A stretch of 64,000 bases of DNA from Naegleria gruberi (taxonomy: Eukaryota), in assembly GCA_000004985.1 (NCBI GenBank), contig GG738867.1, one strand, 5' to 3'. The position numbers and the translations under genes were made by a program. The notes beneath the pieces were generated by a model. That model saw only the letters and a program-made list of their open reading frames with translations. It was not told where the DNA came from and did not search any database. This document shows, piece after piece, positions 4,868 through 64,000 of this stretch; the stretch's first letter is position 1, and each line of letters begins with the position of its first letter.

Positions 4868-6031
4868 ATGCTCAGCTCATCCAGCAAATCCTCCTCATCG
4901 TCAGATCAGAGAATCATCTCATTTTCCATCAATAAGAAGGAAATTATTGAAAAATTCCCACCATCCTTCTTTTCCAAAAACAAAGTCTTTCTCTATTCTC
5001 TACACTCTGATCAATTGGATTATGAAGGTGATTTAATTTATTCGAGATTTAAAGCAAGGACTCGACCAAAAGCCTATAAGAAGGAAGTTGCAGAAGATCA
5101 GGTGTGTGAGGTGATTGTTTCAAGTGATGGTTTCAAGTATGATGAAAAGTTGAAGGTTGGGGAGGAGAATGCCAAGCATTGGTATTTGAATTTTGCAGAT
5201 GAGAGATTGTTTATTGCTTGGAAAGGTCAATTGTTTGCTCAGGATGAGATTCAAGTTTGTGAACATCCAATTTTGGGAAGTTTGTGTGAATATTTGAGAA
5301 AGGAAAGTTTAAATGATGCAAGATATAGTCCAATAACTCAACAAACATCTCCCACTCCAGTATTGATTCAGAATGTGGATAGAAGAATTGCAGTCAATGT
5401 TAAAGACTATAATATTTATGGAAATAACTTTGCCAAGGCATCTACTGATATTATTGAACAAGCAACAACTGTTTTGGACATGAAAACGAATAGAAAATCA
5501 AATATTTTGGCAATTAGTGCACCTAGGTAGGTTTTGGATTTGAATTTCTCATATTTGAAAATATAGAGGTGGACATGGAGAGTACAAATTGGGAGAAGTT
5601 AATTTCATATTCGATACTTTATATAGTGGATTTAAGGCATGTTGCATGGATACTGAAATGTATGCCCAGGATCCAGAAAATCCACCAACTGTTGTCATTC
5701 ACACAGGTAATTTTGGTTGTGGTGCCTTTGGTAACAATAGAGTAAGTATAATTGTTGAATAGAAATGGAAACTAATCTTTTCGAATAGGAATTGATAGCA
5801 ATTCTTCAAATATTGGCAGCAAGAATGGCAGGTATCAAGTATCTATATTATCATGCATTCAGTGAGGAAGGTGTAAAATCTGTCAAAAAGGCCATTAAGG
5901 TAATTGATGAAGAATTTGATTTGGTATGCAAAGATCCATCCGATATAGAAGGTAATTTAGTTTCCCTTAATAAGCTTTTCGATATGATTTTACAAAAAGG
6001 ATATAAATGGGGTTTTTCCGATGGAAATTAA
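4868..6031 (+). CDS. Poly(ADP-ribose) glycohydrolase (PARG)-like protein, 3 exons (approx 4868..5516/5527, approx 5569..5741, 5789..6031)
   Basis: Exon 2 encodes VVIHTGNFGCGAFGNNR and exon 3 encodes ELIAILQILAARMAGIKYLYYHAF. These match the PARG signature TGNWGCGAFGGDxRLKALIQILAAAAA...YFTF. Exon 1 carries LNFADERLFIAWKGQLFAQDEIQVCEHPIL, a diverged GGG-X-QEE region that reads QDE. The donor GTAAGT at 5742 and acceptor AG at 5787-5788 give a 47-nt intron in phase. The exon 1 to exon 2 junction is ambiguous between donors at 5517 and 5528. The real ATG is at 4868; the track start at 4832 is GTG. Confidence 0.6.
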
Positions 6032-20786: not shown

Positions 20787-22607
20787 ATGAACCCGACACA
20801 ACCGAGCAGCAATCCCAATCTCCTGCAGGTACAAGGCTCTGCAAACCATAATGTCAGTGGTGCTAGTTTAAGCTTTGATGATGTTGGTAGTCATCATAGC
20901 GGATTTGGAGGCATTGGTTTCAATGGAGAGTCAAGCCAGGTAGATCCCTCCGTTACACAAAAGAGTCGTTCTAGTTCCAATAATACGAATAATCCTTTGG
21001 TTATATTTGAGAGGAGTTTTTCGATATTCATCTCGGCGTTAAGGAATACTCTAGAATCAACAACATACATATATTCTGTTCTGCTGTATATTTGGATAAT
21101 TTTGCAAACATTTTCTTTATCTTCCTATTATGAATACAGGTGGGGAAATATTGCAGGATGGATAATGAGAGGAATAGCAGCAATATGGACATTAGGGTTT
21201 GATTTTATGCCATATAATGTAAGTATATAGTGATTAGAGGTGTAATGATTAATATTGTGTTTCCTTAATGATTGTTACTACTCAATTTACTGGTTCTATT
21301 TTAACAACTTCATCAACCCTAAAATCCTTTTCATCCCAATGAATAATTATTAACTTGCAATCTCTCAACAGGGTCATATTGTTATAATATCTCTGTCTTT
21401 GGCCCTTAACATTGTAACATTATTAATGTTCTTATATTGCAAATCTGCGCTTGGAAATGGCAGTAAACATTGGGATAGACTAAAACGATACACAAGAAAG
21501 ATGTGTGTCATTCATCTCGTATTTTCTGTTCCGATGATGTATTGCTATGGAGTGTTTTGGCACTGTGATTATACGACACTGAAATTGTTCGCCTTCTCTG
21601 AAGTTGAATGTTGGTCTCCTTCTAATAGTGGCCTTGCATCAATATCAATGTTGGGAGCATTAATGACTTTCATTATTACATTAATATCAAGTTTGGTTCT
21701 TGTAGATATCAATCCAGCAAGTAAGGGAATATTTGTGAGTTTTACTCCATTCTTTTTTGCTTCTCTAGTTGCTTCGAATACTCTTTTTGCATTCCTTCAA
21801 CAAGCTATTCCTCCTTACATTTACTATGCTGTCCCATCATTATTTATTGTGAAACAGTTATTGTTGTGTGTAGCGCTTGTTCAGAGATATCCATTCTTTA
21901 GAAGAGTGGAAAATTCAGTCATGTTTGGGGTATTGGTAGGCTCTGGAATGTGGGCAGTAGCAAATCTGGTTGTCTTCTCTGTAAATAGTAATGTTCCTTC
22001 AATTGATCTGGAAACATCAGGACTTGCAATAATGGGTGTTGGTTTCTTGTTGCCCATCACTGGGATCGTTCTCGGTTTTGTTGGTATTGAAATTGCCACT
22101 CGTGTCATTGTTTCAAAAGTAAAACATGATCTCGATAACTTAATGAGCAGTCCTCAAGGTGAACTGGAAGAAATGAAGTATTCTCATTTATTTATTCAGT
22201 GGGCCATGAAAGATCATTCCCTTGCAGAGTACGTGCGGTATCTTATTAATGAAGTTTCTTCAACCAAGGTGGATCTCTCATTCATCGATTTGATAACGAG
22301 TGCTTGTTATATGCACTATTTGGTGGAAGATTTTCAAACCAGTGCACTCTTGTTGCTTAAAAGATCTGAAGAAATGTTTGATTCTGTTTGGTTCATTGAC
22401 AGATTAGAACTCCAAATAAGAAAGAGAGAAATCACTAGCCACATTCATGCTGAAAGCGCTGAAGTGTCTGAGTACTTGACAAAAGTTGTAGCTAAACAAG
22501 ACACAATTCTAATTCTCCAAAGATCATTCTGGAAAATTGTCCTATCAGAAGAAATATCTGAATTGGCGATGGAACAAGCAGGAAGAAAGATATGGTCAAC
22601 TCTTTGA
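20787..22607 (+). CDS. Multi-pass membrane module, 2 exons (20787..21218, 21372..approx 22594-22607). It is probably the N-terminal part of the downstream cyclase gene
   Basis: Exon 1 ends ...FMPYN with donor GTAAGT at 21219. Acceptor CAACAG ends at 21371, giving a 153-nt intron with an in-frame TAG. Exon 2 is in phase and encodes 6-8 predicted TM helices, then a cytoplasmic region. It overlaps the start of ORF 22592 in another frame. Confidence 0.55.
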
Positions 22608-25291
22608 ATGAATACAGATATATTCAAAAAAATTTAGAGCTCTATGGAACTCTTGATACTGAGAGGTTTGAATCCATTAAAGGAAGATTGGCTTGGTATG
22701 CCAGTATGATAAATGAAATGGTGAAAACAGTACAATCTAATTATTTCACAGATGAAATGAAAAATGATATGCTTGGAACTAAGAGTGAAGTGTTTCTTCC
22801 TTCTCTTTCTGCTGACGGTAGCTATACGTTCAGCACAAAGAATATGACATATTCAGAATTGATGCATTTGATCGGTTCTGTTACATCAGTATTAGCCAAT
22901 AGTACTTTAGAAACTTTTAGGAATACCACAAACTTTGAGTACATCTTTTTGTGGAAGAACAGGTTACTCTTTATTGATTATTTCGAGGTCTTTTGCGATA
23001 TTTTGACTGCAAGAAACTTTGAACATTTGAATGCATGGTCCAACATTATTATTGGTGTAATGTCAACCCTGATAGGTCTATTTACCATATATTTGATCGT
23101 GTTTTGGGTAATTGTTGGTGGCTATATGAAGGCATCATCCAAGCTATTCAAGCTTTACAAGTTTTTACCAAAGGATGAAGTAGGAAAGCTTTTCCATGAA
23201 TTGGAGAAAAAGACAAGCCAGCTTAATCAAAGAATTGAGTTTAGAAAGTCCAATCTATTATCTCCTTCAAACGTTATGATCTACTTTTTGGCTTTAGTCT
23301 TCTTACTAACTTATATTTCAGTTGGATTGATATTTTTTGAGGCCCTTTACAACTCTGTTTACAACAGACAAGCAATTTCCAAAGTTCAACATGGTACAGA
23401 AATTACGCACGATTTGACCAAGATCACCTTTGGTTCATTCCAATCCTTATTTGATGATACTGATTATCTTCAATATACACACGATGAATTGTATGAATTT
23501 GCAAAGCGGTACAATACCATGGACGAGTACACTGATTTCAGATACGGAACAGAGGATGCAGGTTATTATAATTTAATTGGTATGACATCTTCTATAGATA
23601 CACAAGTTGAGCACCGTGGAACAGATGCTAAATGCAAGAATTACACTTTGATTAATTTTGATATTTCACAAATAGAATGCATGAGCATGGATGAATTGAT
23701 TAATGCAAATGCTTACTATTTAGCTAAACAAGTAGAAGATATTTACAAGAAGAAATATTCAGAAGAACAATTGTTGGCAACTTTTTGGAAGAATTACTTG
23801 GTATACATTCAGACAAGAAAAAAGAGTTGGGGAATCATGCTTGAATCTGTTGATTATTTCACCTCTAGAATTAATCAGAGAATAATAAGTGGTTTGGCTT
23901 GTGCCTTGCCTGCTCTGGTTGCTCTGTTAGCGTATATGGCTTTTAGGACTTATAGTAGAATTAATAAGGAAAGATCTCTCTTCTTATTAATGCTCTTCCA
24001 AGTTCCTTGTGATGTTCTAGATAATCTAGATCCAATCAAGAATTACATTTTTAATAGAAGCTTTGATTCTGGAAAGAAGAATAAGCAATTGTCATTGGAT
24101 GGAAGAAGTGAGGTTAAGGCAGTTTGTGATGCTGCTGTGGATGGAATGATTCTTTGTACCTCTGTTGGTGTGATTGAAATCTTTAACACTGCCTCGGAAA
24201 CAATGTTTGGATACAAGTCCACAGATGTACTTGGATTGTCTCTTACCAAACTGTTTGAAAAGGAAGGCAGAGAAAAGGTAGAGAATATTCTGGCCAGATT
24301 GAGACAATCTAATGAAACAATGGGAGAAACTCTAGAATTGGTTTGTTTAAGAAAAAATGACAGAAAGTTCCCAACAAGAGTTTCCTTATCAGTTAGTTTG
24401 CTAAGCACTTCCAATAACATGAAAAAATCTGTCATTACATGCTTTATCAAGGATATCACCACCGAATTGAAACACAATAATTTGATTAAGGAAGAAAAGA
24501 TGAAGTCTGAAGCACTCTTGTTGAATATTCTCCCTGAACCAGTGGCCAATAGACTGAAGGCAGGTGAAACCAATATATATGAAAACTTTAAGGATGTTAC
24601 CTGTTTCTTTAGCGACATTGTTGGTTTTACAACCATGTCATCAACCATGGAACCAAATCAAGTGGTTGCCATGTTGAACGAAATTGTCAATCAATTTGAT
24701 ATCCTTTGTGACTCGTATGATTTAGAAAAAATCAAAACTATTGGTGATGCATACTTTTGTTGTGGTGGTTTACACAATTGTATGCAAAGTGATCACCCTG
24801 AGAAAGTTGTTAGATTTGCCATTGATACATTGGGTGTCATTTATATTTACAATACTCAAAACAATACTACTGTGAATATTCGTGTTGGTGTACATACTGG
24901 CAGTGTAGTAGCTGGTGTTTTAGGTATAAAGAAGTTTGCTTATGATTTGTGGGGAGATGCTGTAAATACTGCCTCTCGTATGGAATCAACCGGTTTACCT
25001 GGTAGAGTTCAAATATCAAGAGACACTTATGAAAGAGTGCACGATTTGTTCGAATTTGATTTGAGAGAAATTGAAGTTAAAGGAAAAGGTAAAATGAAGA
25101 CATATGTGGTAAAGGAAAAACATCATCAAAATCCAAACAAGGAATCTCCAGAAATTACCAGTACCACTATTCTAAGAAACAGACTGGGTGAATCAAGTTC
25201 TGCAGCAAATTTATTCCAAGCTCAACAAAATATTGACCATGAAAATTCAGTTCCAAATTTACTTCAATTAACCATTCCAGATAAATATTAA
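22592..25291 (+). CDS. Class III adenylate/guanylate cyclase with TM segments and PAS domain, 899 aa as one ORF; it likely continues from 20787
   Basis: A PAS region (SLDGRSEVKAVCDAAVDGMILCTSVGVIEIFNTASETMFGYKSTDVLG) is followed by a cyclase catalytic domain (FFSDIVGFTTMSSTMEPNQVVAMLNEIVNQFD, KIKTIGDAYFCCGG, IRVGVHTGSVVAGVLGIKKFAYDLWGDAVNTASRMESTGLPGRVQIS). Three TM helices lie N-terminal of the PAS domain. Confidence 0.8.
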   Translation: MVNSLNEYRYIQKNLELYGTLDTERFESIKGRLAWYASMINEMVKTVQSNYFTDEMKNDMLGTKSEVFLPSLSADGSYTFSTKNMTYSELMHLIGSVTSVLANSTLETFRNTTNFEYIFLWKNRLLFIDYFEVFCDILTARNFEHLNAWSNIIIGVMSTLIGLFTIYLIVFWVIVGGYMKASSKLFKLYKFLPKDEVGKLFHELEKKTSQLNQRIEFRKSNLLSPSNVMIYFLALVFLLTYISVGLIFFEALYNSVYNRQAISKVQHGTEITHDLTKITFGSFQSLFDDTDYLQYTHDELYEFAKRYNTMDEYTDFRYGTEDAGYYNLIGMTSSIDTQVEHRGTDAKCKNYTLINFDISQIECMSMDELINANAYYLAKQVEDIYKKKYSEEQLLATFWKNYLVYIQTRKKSWGIMLESVDYFTSRINQRIISGLACALPALVALLAYMAFRTYSRINKERSLFLLMLFQVPCDVLDNLDPIKNYIFNRSFDSGKKNKQLSLDGRSEVKAVCDAAVDGMILCTSVGVIEIFNTASETMFGYKSTDVLGLSLTKLFEKEGREKVENILARLRQSNETMGETLELVCLRKNDRKFPTRVSLSVSLLSTSNNMKKSVITCFIKDITTELKHNNLIKEEKMKSEALLLNILPEPVANRLKAGETNIYENFKDVTCFFSDIVGFTTMSSTMEPNQVVAMLNEIVNQFDILCDSYDLEKIKTIGDAYFCCGGLHNCMQSDHPEKVVRFAIDTLGVIYIYNTQNNTTVNIRVGVHTGSVVAGVLGIKKFAYDLWGDAVNTASRMESTGLPGRVQISRDTYERVHDLFEFDLREIEVKGKGKMKTYVVKEKHHQNPNKESPEITSTTILRNRLGESSSAANLFQAQQNIDHENSVPNLLQLTIPDKY

Positions 25292-33272: not shown

Positions 33273-34997
33273 TTACAAGGTAAAGAATGAAAGAATAATC
33301 AAAAGCAATACCATCGCAATGCTTGGATGACTAATTAATTGTCCATCATTGACTCTATCAGGATTTGTTGAATTTTTGGCAATGACACCTGTTGTGAAAG
33401 AAGTGGTTGGGTTGACTGAAGAGACAGCTGCTGGAACTTCTACTTTAAGCAGTTGAGCTGAAACAGTGGATTCCTGGTTGACTCCACTGGTAGCAAAAAT
33501 ACTTCCCCAACAACTGGAAGAAGGCCAAGTAAATACGAAACTTTGTCCATTATTCAAGTTTCCACTATCGATATTGGAAAGATTTCTACAAGCTAAATTG
33601 ATATAAAATCTAAATTGACCACCACCAGTTGTAATTGCAGTGATATTGTACAATTGACCAGAAGTTGGCTTTGCCCACAATGTTTTTGAAAGACCAGTTC
33701 CATTCGTATTTCTTTGAGAAGTTTTAGAAGTTCTATTCGAAAAGACAACTGCTTGTTTCCATGTATCGAAATATCCCAATGAACCTCCATATTCCAATGC
33801 CCATGGACCTCTCATGGAAATTAAATTTTGATTCAGACTGAATTTAATTGGCTTATCTTCACCATTCAAATATCCTGAACATGATTTGAGAGGTCTGAGG
33901 GCAGCTCTAATAACTTGCAATTCATAGGCAGCTTGATTACTCCATCCACCCGGATGCAATGTGTAATTACTTCCAATTTCAACATAGATATTGAATGGAG
34001 TTCCTGTATTTCTGTCTGTAACGTAAGCTCCATAAGTTTTCAGAGTTTCAGCAATTTTTCTCAATTTTGGAATGGTCAATGATTTGGTTACGTTGAAATC
34101 TGAAGGAAGCATCAATAAACTGCCTTCTGGAATTGTTCCATAATTGGTAGCGGCTGCATCACCATCAGCAGCTGTGGCTGGCCAAACATAGGTTGGATTA
34201 TTGGACAAACCATTAAATGTCATAGACAAGGTCAATGCATGTCTATATTGTGAATCACCATCATCAACTTCATACTTTCTAATCAATCCAGCAGAGCTAG
34301 GAACACCAGTGGCTCTAGCTCCCTGATAGAAGAATGCAGGAGTTCCCCAACCAACACCATCAAGAGCTGACCAACCATACAATGCTGCACGCCATGTTCC
34401 ATTCACATTCTTCAATTGCCAGAATGAGTGAATTACTTTATCAATTGGATCAAAAATTTCACAATGTCCTATTCAAGTACAATCATTGAAATTCAACACA
34501 CAACAAATTCAACCAATGAAACACAAAGTTAAATAAATGACAAATAAATGAACTAAACTTACCATCACTTCCACTTGCTGGTAAAGTATTAGATGGCCAA
34601 CGAGGAATTGTAACACTCGTTGTAGATCCACCAATATCAGCAATGGCAATGCCAGTATTTGCAGATGGACCATAAACTAACTTGGAGGTATCATCTGCAG
34701 AAGCAATGAAAACACCAGTTGAGTAAATACCTTCACCAATGGCTGGATAGAAAGAAGATTGAGGAACAGTCTTGGAATCGTCTAAAACTGGGTTGACTGG
34801 ACGACTATTCCAAGGAGAGTTGGCAGAGAATGGTCTGTAAACGCTACCAAAAGGATAAGTAGCTGCTTGAATGACTGTTGTGTCATACAGGAATATGTCT
34901 ACACACACAAGTCAAAAAGTCAGTTGCCAAAAATTAACTTACAAATTGCTAGGAACAATGTAACGAGTGACAATCTAACGTATCTATTAACTTTCAT
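33273..34997 (-). CDS. Secreted Thr/Ser/Asn-rich protein with N-terminal signal peptide and C-terminal hydrophobic tail (GPI-anchor-like), 3 exons (34997..34943, 34898..34563, 34468..33273), approx 528 aa
   Basis: Exon 1 encodes MKVNRYVRLSLVTLFLAI and ends at donor GTAAGT. Acceptor TGTGTGTGTAG gives a 44-nt intron. Exon 2 reads ...SGSD with donor GTAAGT and a 94-nt intron. Exon 3 starts GHCEIFDPIDKV.... Phases close, with 55 + 336 + 1196 nt of CDS. The C-terminus is PSIAMVLLLIILSFFTL. The function is unknown. Confidence 0.6.
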
Positions 34998-56623: not shown

Positions 56624-59245
56624 ATGACTGAAGTAAAACAAAGCAGCCGATTCTTTCATAAACCTCTTCCACCACCAATTCCAAGGTAAGTTTCAAATGT
56701 TCATCAAATCTCATCGAAAATATTCGAAAGTAGAGAATCCTTATCACCAAATCAACACAACTTTCCACTACAACAACCATACTCTCAAAATTCACAACAA
56801 TTGACAACCACAAAAAAATATCAACAACAAATGTCAGATGTTTCTAATAATCAATTAAACGAAACTAATGGAAAGGAAACGATTGTTCAAGATTATTCAT
56901 ATAACCATCTACCAGATTTGGAAGCCACATTCCCGTCCAATCCTGTCATTATGGAGGGTTTTATAATTGACACTGATCAACAAGAAGAAAAAAAAGAATC
57001 GACCATGCTTTCGAATAGTTTGGACGAAACTTTTGCCGAAAGTCCTACAAACGCAGGAGTGAGTGCTTCTCAACTACTCATGGCACAGAAAGTTAATCTA
57101 TTCGAAAGTATTCTTTCCAAGAAATCAGTAAGTCTTCCTGACTTTGGAGCTATTGAAAGTCAAAAGTCTAACCTGTCATTAGATTTAGATTCAGAAACAA
57201 GTGCAAATTCCGACACTATCACAGACTATTTCTTCGTTAGAAATGTCAACACTGTAAATATCGATGATCTTGTCCAATCTAAATTTGGAAACTGTCAAAT
57301 GTTAGATCATGACTTGATTTTTAATGAAAATTTAAGAAAGATTAGAAATAGATTTAAACCAATCTATGAAACACTCTTAGAAAATGATGCTCTTTATAAT
57401 GGAAATCAAATTGACAATTTTTCATCGTACAGTTTAGGAAATGTTGAATTTGAACAAATAATGTCATCATTTTCAACGAATATTCAAGAATATTGTGAAT
57501 ATGAATTGAAGTATATGCATGATTTCTTTAAAACTGATTGTCCAAATATTATTCAATCTCTACCATTGATTATTTCATTGAAAAGTTTGACAATTGATGA
57601 ATTGAAATGTACTGTCAATGTTTTAAAGAAAGTTTTGACATTGGGAGCATATACTCATCCTGAGAAGGTTTTGGTTTCTCAGAGTTTGGCACTTCCTGAT
57701 CTATTCTGTTATTTATTCTTTGATAATCCAACAAAAAGTCAATCAGAATTGAATAAGGCACTTATTAGAAATAGAAGTGATTCGAATGGAAGTGATACTT
57801 CAAGTGAATCTGTTCGTTCTTCATCCACTTCTCCTTCATTGTTGAGCAAATTCTTTTCTAGAAATAGGAAAAAGAATTTGAAATCATCTCCAATTGTTTC
57901 TTTTGAAAAGGAATTGATGTATTTACAAATTTATTTAATTATTTTTGAATTTTCAGAATCAGATATTGTTGAAATACCTCATGGATATGAACACAATGTG
58001 TATAGGTAAGTGATTTTAGAATTTAATTTCCATTTATGGTATTTTCCAAATTTGGAATTTTAAATCTTTATTAGAACTGCAATCGGTGTGGGTAATTGGA
58101 TACTGGAATGGAAAGAAAATTCACTTGTCATTCCTTCACGTAAAACTACATTCAAATTTAATCATAATTATCATTGCATTCCACTTAGAAGAGTTGAAGG
58201 AGATTTGATTATTGAAAAATTACTTTGTAAACTTTCAAATTTGTGTTGTTTGTGGAATGGCAATTATGTTTACGACTTGACACGTTGTAATCATCAACAT
58301 TTCGTAAGAGATGTCATTGAAATGTTAGATCAAGAATGCATTTCAACAAAACTTTATTTATTTGATCAACCAAATGATCAACCTGCTAAATTATCAACTT
58401 CATTGAATGATAATATTTCAGTTGGAAGTCAATCTTCCACTAGCTCTACACCATCAATCAAAATTGGTGGAACTTCAGAATTTGGAATGAGTGTTGACAG
58501 ATTTTTACAATTCATTCAAAGAAATGGTTATGCTCCATTGACATTTTTCATTAATGATCATGTGAAAGAGGTTTTATATGGTAAGAAATTGAGTCAGATG
58601 AAGAAATCGAGATCATCTCCATCCACTTCACCTCACAAACCAATTTCACAATTGAATATTTCAAATAGTAATGAGAATAGTCCGCTCTTAATTAGACCTC
58701 CACAACCATTGAATTTATCCTCCTGGAATGGATATTTCAATAGAAATGAGGAGCTTGATGAGTACAATGAGAAGGAATATATTGTCTTTAAGGAACATCG
58801 TGAGCTTGACAGTTTATACTTTCAAATTAAGAATGCTTTTGGAAGTGTTGAATACTTTAAAGTTCATCCAGAGGGAAAGTGGGATTATTGGTTATTGAAA
58901 TTGTTGGATCGTGGCTTTTGGACAAGAATTACACATTCCCAAGAGAAAATTAACAGAGATCAGAAAGATTATCCTCTCACCAAGTTGAATGCAAGAGTAA
59001 CTCTTCACAAGGAATCTTTGGAAAAGTTGATGGAACAGAAACATGCCAATATAGTCATCAAGACTAATTTAATGTTCCACGAAAAGGAGGAATGTAATTG
59101 CCCATTCAATTGGGATACTTTGAGCACTTTGGAAATGGACATGACTGCCAAATTACCTGACACTACATTTTTAGGGGATTACGAACCGCCAGTCCCACAC
59201 AAGAGAAGTTGGATTATTACTTCAAATAATAGTGTTATTTTGTAA
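56624..59245 (+). CDS. Hypothetical protein, 3 exons (56624..56685, 56734..58005, 58075..59245), approx 834 aa. The C-terminal half has a possible NlpC/P60-LRAT-like Cys/His motif
   Basis: Exon 1 (MTEVKQSSRFFHKPLPPPIP) was missed by the ORF track. Donor GTAAGT is at 56686 and acceptor AAAGTAG ends at 56733. The second donor reads TATAG|GTAAGT at 58006, and acceptor TTATTAG ends at 58074. Phases close, with 2505 nt of CDS. HNYHCIPL...YDLTRCNHQHFVRDV is reminiscent of the LRAT/H-rev107 His...NCEHF motif. Confidence 0.55.
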
Positions 59246-62047: not shown

Positions 62048-64000
62048 TTAATTCTTTTTGGCAAATAGATTGGAAACTGAGGTAAAGTTACTGTTGGAAC
62101 CCTTTTTGAGTTTTGGTCTTACTGGACTGTTTAGTTTTGGATTGAGTTGATTCATTGAATTATTATTATGCGAAAGAGATGATGGATCCACATATTGTTC
62201 ATTGTTGGAAGATCCAGTAACGCTTTCCGAACTATTGCTCAAATTGTAAGTGTGGTGTTTCTCTTTGAGTAGATAGGTTTTCATTTTGCCCTTTCCTTTA
62301 ACTTCAATCTCCCTCATGTCAAATTCGAATAAATCGTGAACTCTTTCATAGGTGGCTCGTGAAATTTGCACTCTACCAGGCAAACCTGTAGATTCCATCC
62401 TTGAAGCAGTCTGTAATTTAGAATCAATTATAAAAATAATTATTAAATAATTATTGACTTACATTGACAGCATCTCCCCATAAATCCTAAAATGGAATTA
62501 TTTAAAATAATAAAATTGAAATCCATCAGTCGAAAGATGAAAACTTACGTATGCAAATTTACGTTGTCCCAAAACTCCTGCTACAACACTTCCCGTATGT
62601 AAACCAATTCTTCATAAAACTTATTGAAATTCTCATCAAATTTACAATAAACATACCTAATATTCACTGATGAACCATGATTGGCATTGTATTGTTGAAT
62701 GGCTCCAATGGCTCCTATGGCAAATTCCAGTACAAATTATCAAACCATCAACAGTTGCATCACAAATGGCTCTAAGTTCTGCTCTTCCATCATTATCAAT
62801 AGATTGTTTGGATTTCTTTCTGAACGAACGATTGAAAATGTAATTCTTTACAGGGTCAATGTTCTCTAAAATATCAGGTGGAACATTGCAAAACATGAGC
62901 ATTAAGATATTCCTTTCCCTCCATGTTCTATTCATATACTTGTTGGCATATAACATGGCCAAGATTACTAGTACCATGACTGCACATGCAATTCCACTAA
63001 CCACTCTCTCATTCACTTTCCCAATAAAATAATCGACTGCTTCCAACATAACTTTCCATGAAAGATTTCTAGTTCTTGTATATAATTCCAAATTCTTATA
63101 ATATTGATTGAGTAGAACTTGCTCAGGGAATTTCTTATTGTAAATGTCCTCAGTTTGCTTTGTAAGTAAAAAAGAGAGGGCATCCACCATTTCATCTAAA
63201 GAAAAACAATCCATCTTGCTAATAGGAATATCATAGAGTGAATAATTTCCACAACTAGTATTTGATGATTTCAAAACTTGATTGTCAATAGATGTAGTCA
63301 ACCCTACCAAATCATTGAAACCATCATCAGAGGTTCCAAATTTAAAGCCATTATATTGATCAACAACACTAAACAATTTGGAATATTCATAAAAGTCGAA
63401 TGTAGAATATTCTAAATATTTCTCGTCATCAAACATGACCTGCAGAGAGGAAAACATTGTCTTTGTTAGAGAGTGAGTCATTTCTGTACCTTTCTGAACC
63501 TTGGTAATTGCATACAAATTGTAATTATTGCTATAAACAGCTTCAAACAAGATCATAGCCAAGGAAATATAGGTCAAGACAATTGTAGAGATAATTAAAT
63601 AGATGATCATCCTGTTGGCAGCAAAAAATGGTGACTGTCTAATGAAATTCTTCATAGTTGATGTCTTGCTCTCCAATTCATGAAAAATTTTACCAACTTC
63701 ATCTCTTGGCAATAATTTGAACAATTGAATTATCTTCTTGAGTTGTCCAATGTCAAATAGTATTGTTGTAATATATACAATCGAATACAATGTGAAAAGG
63801 ACTAAAATGGTTGAAACTATTACAATAATTGTAACTTGCTTTAACTGAATGTTTTTGAAATTCTCAGCCGTTAAGGTATCACAAAAAATTTCCATCAAGT
63901 CTAAAAGACTGAAAGCGTTTTTCCAAAGAAATAAAAATTCATAATTTGCTGTTGCACTAAAGTTCTCAATGGTATAGTTTCTCACTATTTCCAATATGAA
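62048..64000 (-). pseudogene. Paralog of the 22592-25291 cyclase carrying an internal deletion (PAS plus most of the catalytic domain missing, frame not preserved). The 3' part has 3 short introns. The 5' end runs off the window
   Basis: N-terminal TM region ANYEFLFLWKNAFSLLDLMEIFCDTL parallels TNFEYIFLWKNRLLFIDYFEVFCDIL in the intact copy. ...RAELRAICDATVDGLIICTG then jumps, with a frame shift, to EFAIGAIGAIQQYNANHGSSVNIR. That segment corresponds to VRFAIDTLGVIYIYNTQNNTTVNIR in the intact copy, which lies about 230 aa downstream there. The 3' exons are [21 protein letters not shown] | DLWGDAVN | TASRMESTGLPGRVQISRATYERV.... The introns are 47, 62 and 52 nt (GTATGT, GTAAGT, GTAAGT). Confidence 0.5.

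Follow-up and report, generated by a model that had tools for sequence, protein, structure and literature searches.

Here we describe two related cyclase genes that differ in their introns and lie in one 64,000 nt stretch of Naegleria gruberi DNA (contig GG738867.1 of assembly GCA_000004985.1), the whole of which is called the window below. The genes, paralog 1 (P1) and paralog 2 (P2), belong to a heterolobosean family in which a TmcB-like membrane domain is joined to a PAS domain and a class III cyclase domain. The 3′ tail of P2 contains three short intervals, I1, I2 and I3, which to judge from their sequence are almost certainly genuine spliceosomal-type introns typical for the lineage, and no intron at exactly any of these three positions was found in nine relatives. 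We consider it probable, with considerable room for doubt, that at least I1 and I3 were inserted in the P2 lineage, and we favour this over their loss from P1. P2 itself appears most likely to be a recently inactivated, probable pseudogene, in which the introns would be relics of a functional gene.

The window is AT-rich (∼33% guanine plus cytosine, GC), the standard genetic code applies and P2 is read on the minus strand. Intron coordinates were set by explicit splicing, supplemented by a six-frame search and a reverse-complement reading of positions 62900-62000 (Table 1). The original prediction had placed three introns of 47, 62 and 52 nt in the P2 tail, and every detail of it held: the boundaries, the 24-nt exon encoding DLWGDAVN, and a string in the middle exon (TGTTGTAG) that resembles an acceptor and is in fact coding (S-V-V-A). 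It was also right that P1 encodes the same peptide in one continuous exon and that I1-I3 are specific to P2; P1 has neither these nor any other intron in its 909-codon open reading frame (ORF). Excision of I1 restores NIR/IGLHTG (here and below a slash marks the intron position), and removal of all three introns yields an open frame of 173 codons that aligns with P1 at 24875-25105. Left unspliced, the tail meets stops and frameshifts, none of the three lengths being a multiple of three. At this base composition 173 open codons would arise by chance with a probability of 1.3e-6, and a GTAAGT or GTATGT start combined with an AG end on three arbitrary insertions with a probability of ∼2e-15. The GC content of the introns is 0.13-0.23, as against 0.39-0.42 in the flanking exons.

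Table 1. Coordinates of the P2 and P1 features discussed in the text (positions in the window; introns are predicted).
Feature	Coordinates	Strand	Length	Description
P2 N-terminal membrane region	63997..62736	-		Single open frame, runs past window end
P2 exon segment before I1	62735..62657	-		FAIGAIGAIQQYNANHGSSVNI(R); deletion junction ∼62725-62735
Intron I1	62656..62610	-	47 nt	GTATGT...GAAG; phase 2, within Arg codon of NIR; GC 0.21
Exon between I1 and I2	62609..62549	-	61 nt	(R) + 20 residues; GC 0.39
Intron I2	62548..62487	-	62 nt	GTAAGT...TTTAG; phase 0, after KFAY; GC 0.23
Micro-exon between I2 and I3	62486..62463	-	24 nt	DLWGDAVN; GC 0.42
Intron I3	62462..62411	-	52 nt	GTAAGT...TACAG; phase 0, after DAVN; GC 0.13
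Last exon of P2	62410..62048	-		Begins TASRMESTGLPGRVQ; stop codon TAA at 62050-62048
22-nt "intron" of public model P0014	62733..62712	-	22 nt	GTACTG...GGAG; bridges frameshift at deletion junction
Alternative frame-restoring interval	62745..62715	-	31 nt	GTTTGA...ATAG; found by hand reading
P1 main ORF	22562..25291	+	909 codons	Intronless; membrane region, PAS, complete cyclase domain
P1 segment homologous to P2 intron region	24875..24988	+	38 residues	One uninterrupted exon
P1 5′ intron	21219..21371	+	153 nt	GTAAGT...AACAG; phase 0, PYN/GH

By the features that mark U2-type introns, I1-I3 all have GT...AG ends with an extended donor consensus, their excision restores a conserved uninterrupted frame while their retention breaks it, and their length and composition are typical for the organism. 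The yardstick is a set of 53 introns from relatives, 36-518 nt long with a median of 56 nt, in which the donor is GTAAGT in 26 and GTATGT in 12, together 38/53, and the acceptors are TAG, CAG or AAG. I1-I3 resemble the U2-type introns of Naegleria and Willaertia in all these respects, in belonging to the 36-100 nt length class and in being AT-rich, and other short introns in the window share these properties; structurally there is no difference, and only the P2 positions are private. In the core of the spliced P2 tail (77 codons) identity to P1 is 92%, with a nonsynonymous divergence (dN) of 0.061, a synonymous divergence (dS) of 1.44 and an omega of 0.04, which argues that the tail was translated in spliced form for nearly all of its history. 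The public N. gruberi model P0014, when threaded on the window, splices exactly I1, I2 and I3, so that the three introns are not in themselves a new discovery.

The original prediction had proposed surveying other members of the family for these introns. We did so with relatives from four other species and one metagenome, namely N. fowleri, N. lovaniensis, Willaertia magna, Acrasis kona and an environmental contig (L007), which were found by exhaustive representative search and cluster look-up; a word-indexed search with P1 gave almost solely bacterial cyclases. Annotated proteins were threaded exactly onto the DNA with GT/GC...AG introns, the environmental contig was rebuilt by homology, and the introns of nine relatives were placed on a single cyclase-domain alignment. 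When the orthologue pair P0287 (N. fowleri) and P0138 (N. lovaniensis) is merged, the ∼600 nt cyclase domain holds 27 introns at 24 distinct positions, almost all of them private to one gene. The relatives' nearest introns lie 21 nt from I1, 1 nt from I2 and 5 nt from I3, and the outgroup gene, Acrasis kona P0015, is a single 2874-nt exon. Among the closest sequences the sets of tail introns are wholly disjoint: P1 has none, the N. fowleri gene NfA (P0281/P0282) has GSV-V and KGK/G, P2 has I1-I3, and L007, the next most similar sequence to these three, has three others. As a control, P0287 and P0138 (94% identical) share five intron positions and differ by one, which indicates that the mapping is consistent and that single losses do occur. 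Exact coincidences of position between genes (3, against 0.53 expected, P = 0.017) reflect a few shared ancestral introns. Positions are also concentrated in the NIR...ASRME stretch (24875-24990 in P1 and 62390-62660 in P2), where 13/24 fall within 101 nt (P = 3.5e-5).

I1-I3 had been offered as direct evidence of intron gain or loss between the paralogs. The difference in presence and absence stands; as to direction, which the original prediction left open, the family survey leans to gain without proving it. Gain is favoured because no relative has an intron at the I1-I3 positions, because the outgroup is intron-free and because pure loss would need an ancestor with ∼8 introns. At least I1 and I3 would accordingly have entered the P2 lineage after it split from P1 and from the N. 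fowleri gene, while I2 may be older or may have been placed in an insertion hot spot. A frameshifting deletion has removed from P2 both the PAS domain and the N-terminal cyclase half, the introns persisting in the 3′ remnant, and the setting of the insertions would be a family with unusually fast turnover of intron positions. As for a source, no transposon-like or duplicated sequence is visible. A blastn search of I1-I3 against the 64-kb window and the 53 family introns turned up nothing beyond chance matches of AT-rich words, their alignments with each other scored no better than shuffles, and the sequence on either side of them showed no direct repeats of more than 2 nt. An origin from introners or duplication was rejected, there being no shared intron sequence in the window or among the 53 family introns.

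The strongest competitor, a serious one although we think it rather unlikely, is that I1-I3, or at least I2, were ancestral to P1 and P2, and that P1 lost all the introns of its 3′ 2.7 kb together, through a reverse-transcribed spliced mRNA, while P2 kept them. Several observations favour it and so weigh against insertion. The 3′ 2.7 kb of P1 is intron-free, yet its 5′ part keeps an intron whose position and phase are identical to those of the first intron of Willaertia P0133 (PYS/GH); since the 5′ intron was kept and 3′ introns are absent, this is the pattern of classical cDNA-mediated, 3′-biased concerted loss. NfA, a close relative, has five introns in the region homologous to the 3′ part of P1, and the position ENFK/DV is common to NfA and NfB, N. 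fowleri genes of different subclades, and absent from P1. P0287 lacks an intron of its N. lovaniensis orthologue P0138, an instance of loss within the family. The neighbours of I2, the Willaertia P0133 intron 1 nt upstream and that of P0287/P0138 (NfC/NlC) 1 nt downstream, could mean that I2 is an old intron that slid. Three further points count against our interpretation of the locus: the N. gruberi members covered are P1 and P2 of the window, P0140 and P0158 being left out; splicing of I1-I3 is deduced from sequence; and the deletion in P2 could be allele-specific or a feature of the assembly.

What speaks against concerted loss from P1 is the distribution of positions. None of the relatives (0/9) has an intron exactly at I1, I2 or I3, the Acrasis outgroup is intron-free, and the ancestor of P1, P2 and NfA (with L007) would have to have carried its ∼8 introns in ∼70 codons (∼210 nt) and to have passed them on in non-overlapping subsets to its descendants. 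Nor are pairs of positions 1 nt apart commoner than chance (2 observed against 1.0 expected, P = 0.28). Pairs 1-3 nt apart likewise show no excess over random placement (P = 0.19-0.28), and intron sliding is not claimed. It is well established, as reviewed in PMC3488318, that paralogs can differ in their introns, that introns can be lost by way of cDNA and that they can be gained in single lineages. The present case resembles such histories in the presence and absence of introns between paralogs and, for loss, in the kept 5′ and missing 3′ introns of P1. It differs from them in that the P2 introns are absent from all nine relatives and from the outgroup, and for this reason simple loss from a shared set fails to explain the family pattern. 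Gain and loss evidently both operate in the cyclase family, with insertion in the P2 lineage the reading that we prefer for I1 and I3.

The paralogs had been called recent, and this does not survive. Their N-terminal parts are only ∼46% identical, with dS saturated and not computable, and dS for the whole tail is 1.47 (codon alignment after explicit splicing), close to the ∼1.4 of its core; with dS at or beyond this level, P1 and P2 are old rather than recent. A neighbour-joining tree was built from 508 shared columns, with Acrasis as outgroup and the L007 contig not included. It unites P1, P2 and NfA in one clade (100% bootstrap), to which Willaertia P0133 is sister (87%). Within this clade P1 groups with NfA in 57% and with P2 in 42% of replicates, which leaves the order of the three-way split unsettled.

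The description of P1 as intact also has to be revised. Its main ORF is 100% identical to the public N. gruberi "predicted protein" P0001, which starts at an internal Met (22718). Relatives of P1 are 1500-1700 aa long and begin with a TmcB-like N-terminal domain; in P1 this domain is a separate upstream ORF (∼20787-22612, plus strand), which contains the 5′ intron listed in Table 1, at a position where N. fowleri P0281 has none, and shares 22562-22612 with the main ORF in a different frame, with the frame change at 22592-22612. Compared with N. fowleri P0282 (aa 454-637) and Willaertia P0133 (aa 522-723), ∼184 residues are missing at this junction. P0001 represents only the 3′ part of a gene that a deletion has split, and the public models of both paralogs, P0014 and P0001, need correction.

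The original prediction was correct in regarding P2 as damaged. A tblastn search with P1 against the window found only one other copy, P2, in which P1 residues 107-535 match 63997-62723 at about 45-46% identity before the match jumps to residues 749-855 in another frame. P2 thus lacks ∼213 codons (P1 residues ∼536-748), with a frame change at ∼62725-62735, and the upstream frame terminates at a TAG at 62659-62657. The missing segment takes in both the PAS domain and the cyclase domain's N-terminal half. Accordingly, P1 and the Acrasis homologue match Pfam PF00211 at positions 4-182 of 183, plus PAS, whereas the P2 product matches only positions 87-182 (E = 2.8e-30). The complete catalytic domain with metal-binding Asp motifs that marks a class III cyclase is not there in P2, FSD and GDA both being missing in the alignment, while the motifs of the C-terminal half, HTG...WGD.VN.ASRMES, are intact after splicing. 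Of the two marks of a pseudogene, P2 bears a disabling lesion relative to its functional relatives, although splicing out 22 or 31 nt could bring the frame back; relaxed constraint is not seen, omega in the tail being 0.04 and its 173 codons free of stops. Since constraint on the tail is unrelaxed, either inactivation came very late compared with the duplication or the gene retains some function.

P0014, a protein of 459 aa (coding sequence 63610..62048), starts at an internal Met and is 98% identical to the conceptual P2 translation. It has the same I1-I3 as our reading and differs by an added 22-nt "intron" that hides the frameshift. We judge this interval a probable annotation artefact, as it falls below the 36-nt minimum of the 53 family introns and has a GAG acceptor found in 0/53 of them. 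The 31-nt interval is disfavoured as well, being likewise below that minimum and having a donor, GTTTGA, far from the family consensus. These properties bear on a further alternative, that P2 is no pseudogene and that one of these very short introns restores the frame, so that a half-cyclase membrane protein is made and I1-I3 are in current use. The constraint on the tail and its intact splice signals would suit such a reading, and P0014 assumes one. We nevertheless hold it to be improbable, given the size and splice signals of both bridging intervals and the little that remains of PF00211; half a class III cyclase fold that lacks both metal-binding Asp motifs is not known to adopt a stable structure or to be active by itself. 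That I1-I3 are unspliced junk, acquired after the death of the gene in a tail that is merely disrupted coding sequence, would fit the damage upstream of them and is very hard to credit, given consensus donors and AG acceptors placed exactly where splicing at the codon level restores a conserved peptide, the lack of target-site duplications and of anything similar to I1-I3 elsewhere in the window, and an omega that points to selection on the spliced frame. RNA-seq data for N. gruberi are deposited at ENA under PRJEB23822 (PMC6142364).

A number of further observations concern the introns of the window and of the family. A noisy ab initio scan of the window, of which only a handful of convincing short candidates were kept, gave four other likely introns, at 58006-58074 (plus strand, 69 nt), 5742-5788 (plus, 47 nt), 5527-5566 (plus, 40 nt) and 34469-34562 (minus, 94 nt). 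The donor is GTAAGT in three of them and GTAGGT in the fourth, their GC content is 0.20-0.26, each connects long ORFs, and those at 58006 and 5527 come after a TAG, like I1. Ancient shared positions were considered with a Mytilus receptor guanylate cyclase (L002), whose introns lie at IGDA/Y, LHSG/Y, EPYK/ and ISVK/G, none of them at I1-I3. A micro-exon of only 10 nt (FAY + 1 nt) lies between two introns at L009 5343-5352 and L010 5321-5330, is conserved in P0287 and P0138 and precedes their intron 1 nt downstream of I2. In N. lovaniensis, P0137 (L006 5457-5511) and P0138 (L010 5416-5473) both have an intron at SRM/EST, with a 26-nt stretch that is 92% identical, and this intron is absent from P0287, the N. 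fowleri orthologue of P0138; the likeness could be due to shared ancestry or to gene conversion. The homologue on the Naegleria-like contig L007 (JGI 3300002220) has six introns in its cyclase domain. At L007 3900-3995 and 4395-4490 the junctions SDM~VGF and RKF~SYD are not joinable in frame with GT...AG, which could reflect non-canonical splicing, sequence error or a pseudogene. Upstream of Acrasis kona P0015, unannotated ORFs at L001 944-2797 resemble the TmcB-like N-terminal region of P1 (22% identity, E = 8e-9), and P0015 as modelled may be missing 5′ sequence.

How new spliceosomal introns originate has long been an open question, and few clear cases are known from lineages that lack introners. 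Introner- or transposon-driven gain operates in Micromonas, Aureococcus, some fungi and dinoflagellates. Set beside these systems, the cyclase family is alike in its many lineage-private positions among closely related genes and unlike in that its 53 introns share only short AT-rich words, lack terminal repeats or target duplications and are of 36-100 nt. Tentatively, Naegleria and its relatives may have a hitherto unrecognised way of actively inserting introns de novo, one that does without transposon-like introners, a proposal that we regard as possible and no better than speculative. Under such a system introns of 36-100 nt, I1-I3 among them, would have been inserted repeatedly and independently, mostly within ∼100 nt encoding the most conserved catalytic motifs, and the cluster at -1, 0 and +1 nt around KFAY/D would mark an insertion hot spot or rare intron sliding. 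A literature search for intron gain in Naegleria, within one limited library of papers, found nothing specific. The N. gruberi genome has been described as having a moderate intron density, with 30-50% of positions common to other supergroups (PMC3174169).

Taken alone, I1-I3 are routine, and the interest lies in a pattern of private positions that extends through the family. What is added here to the public annotation and the original prediction is the correction of the terms recent and intact, the diagnosis of P2 as a probable pseudogene, the identification of a probably artefactual 22-nt intron, and that pattern itself. Closely related genes of one heterolobosean family differ almost entirely in the tiny introns that they carry over a common stretch of 200 codons, and one paralog and the outgroup have none there. 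Should the pattern hold genome-wide, Naegleria, with its culturable species and several genomes already sequenced, would be a system in which gains and losses of introns could be dated and analysed in detail.

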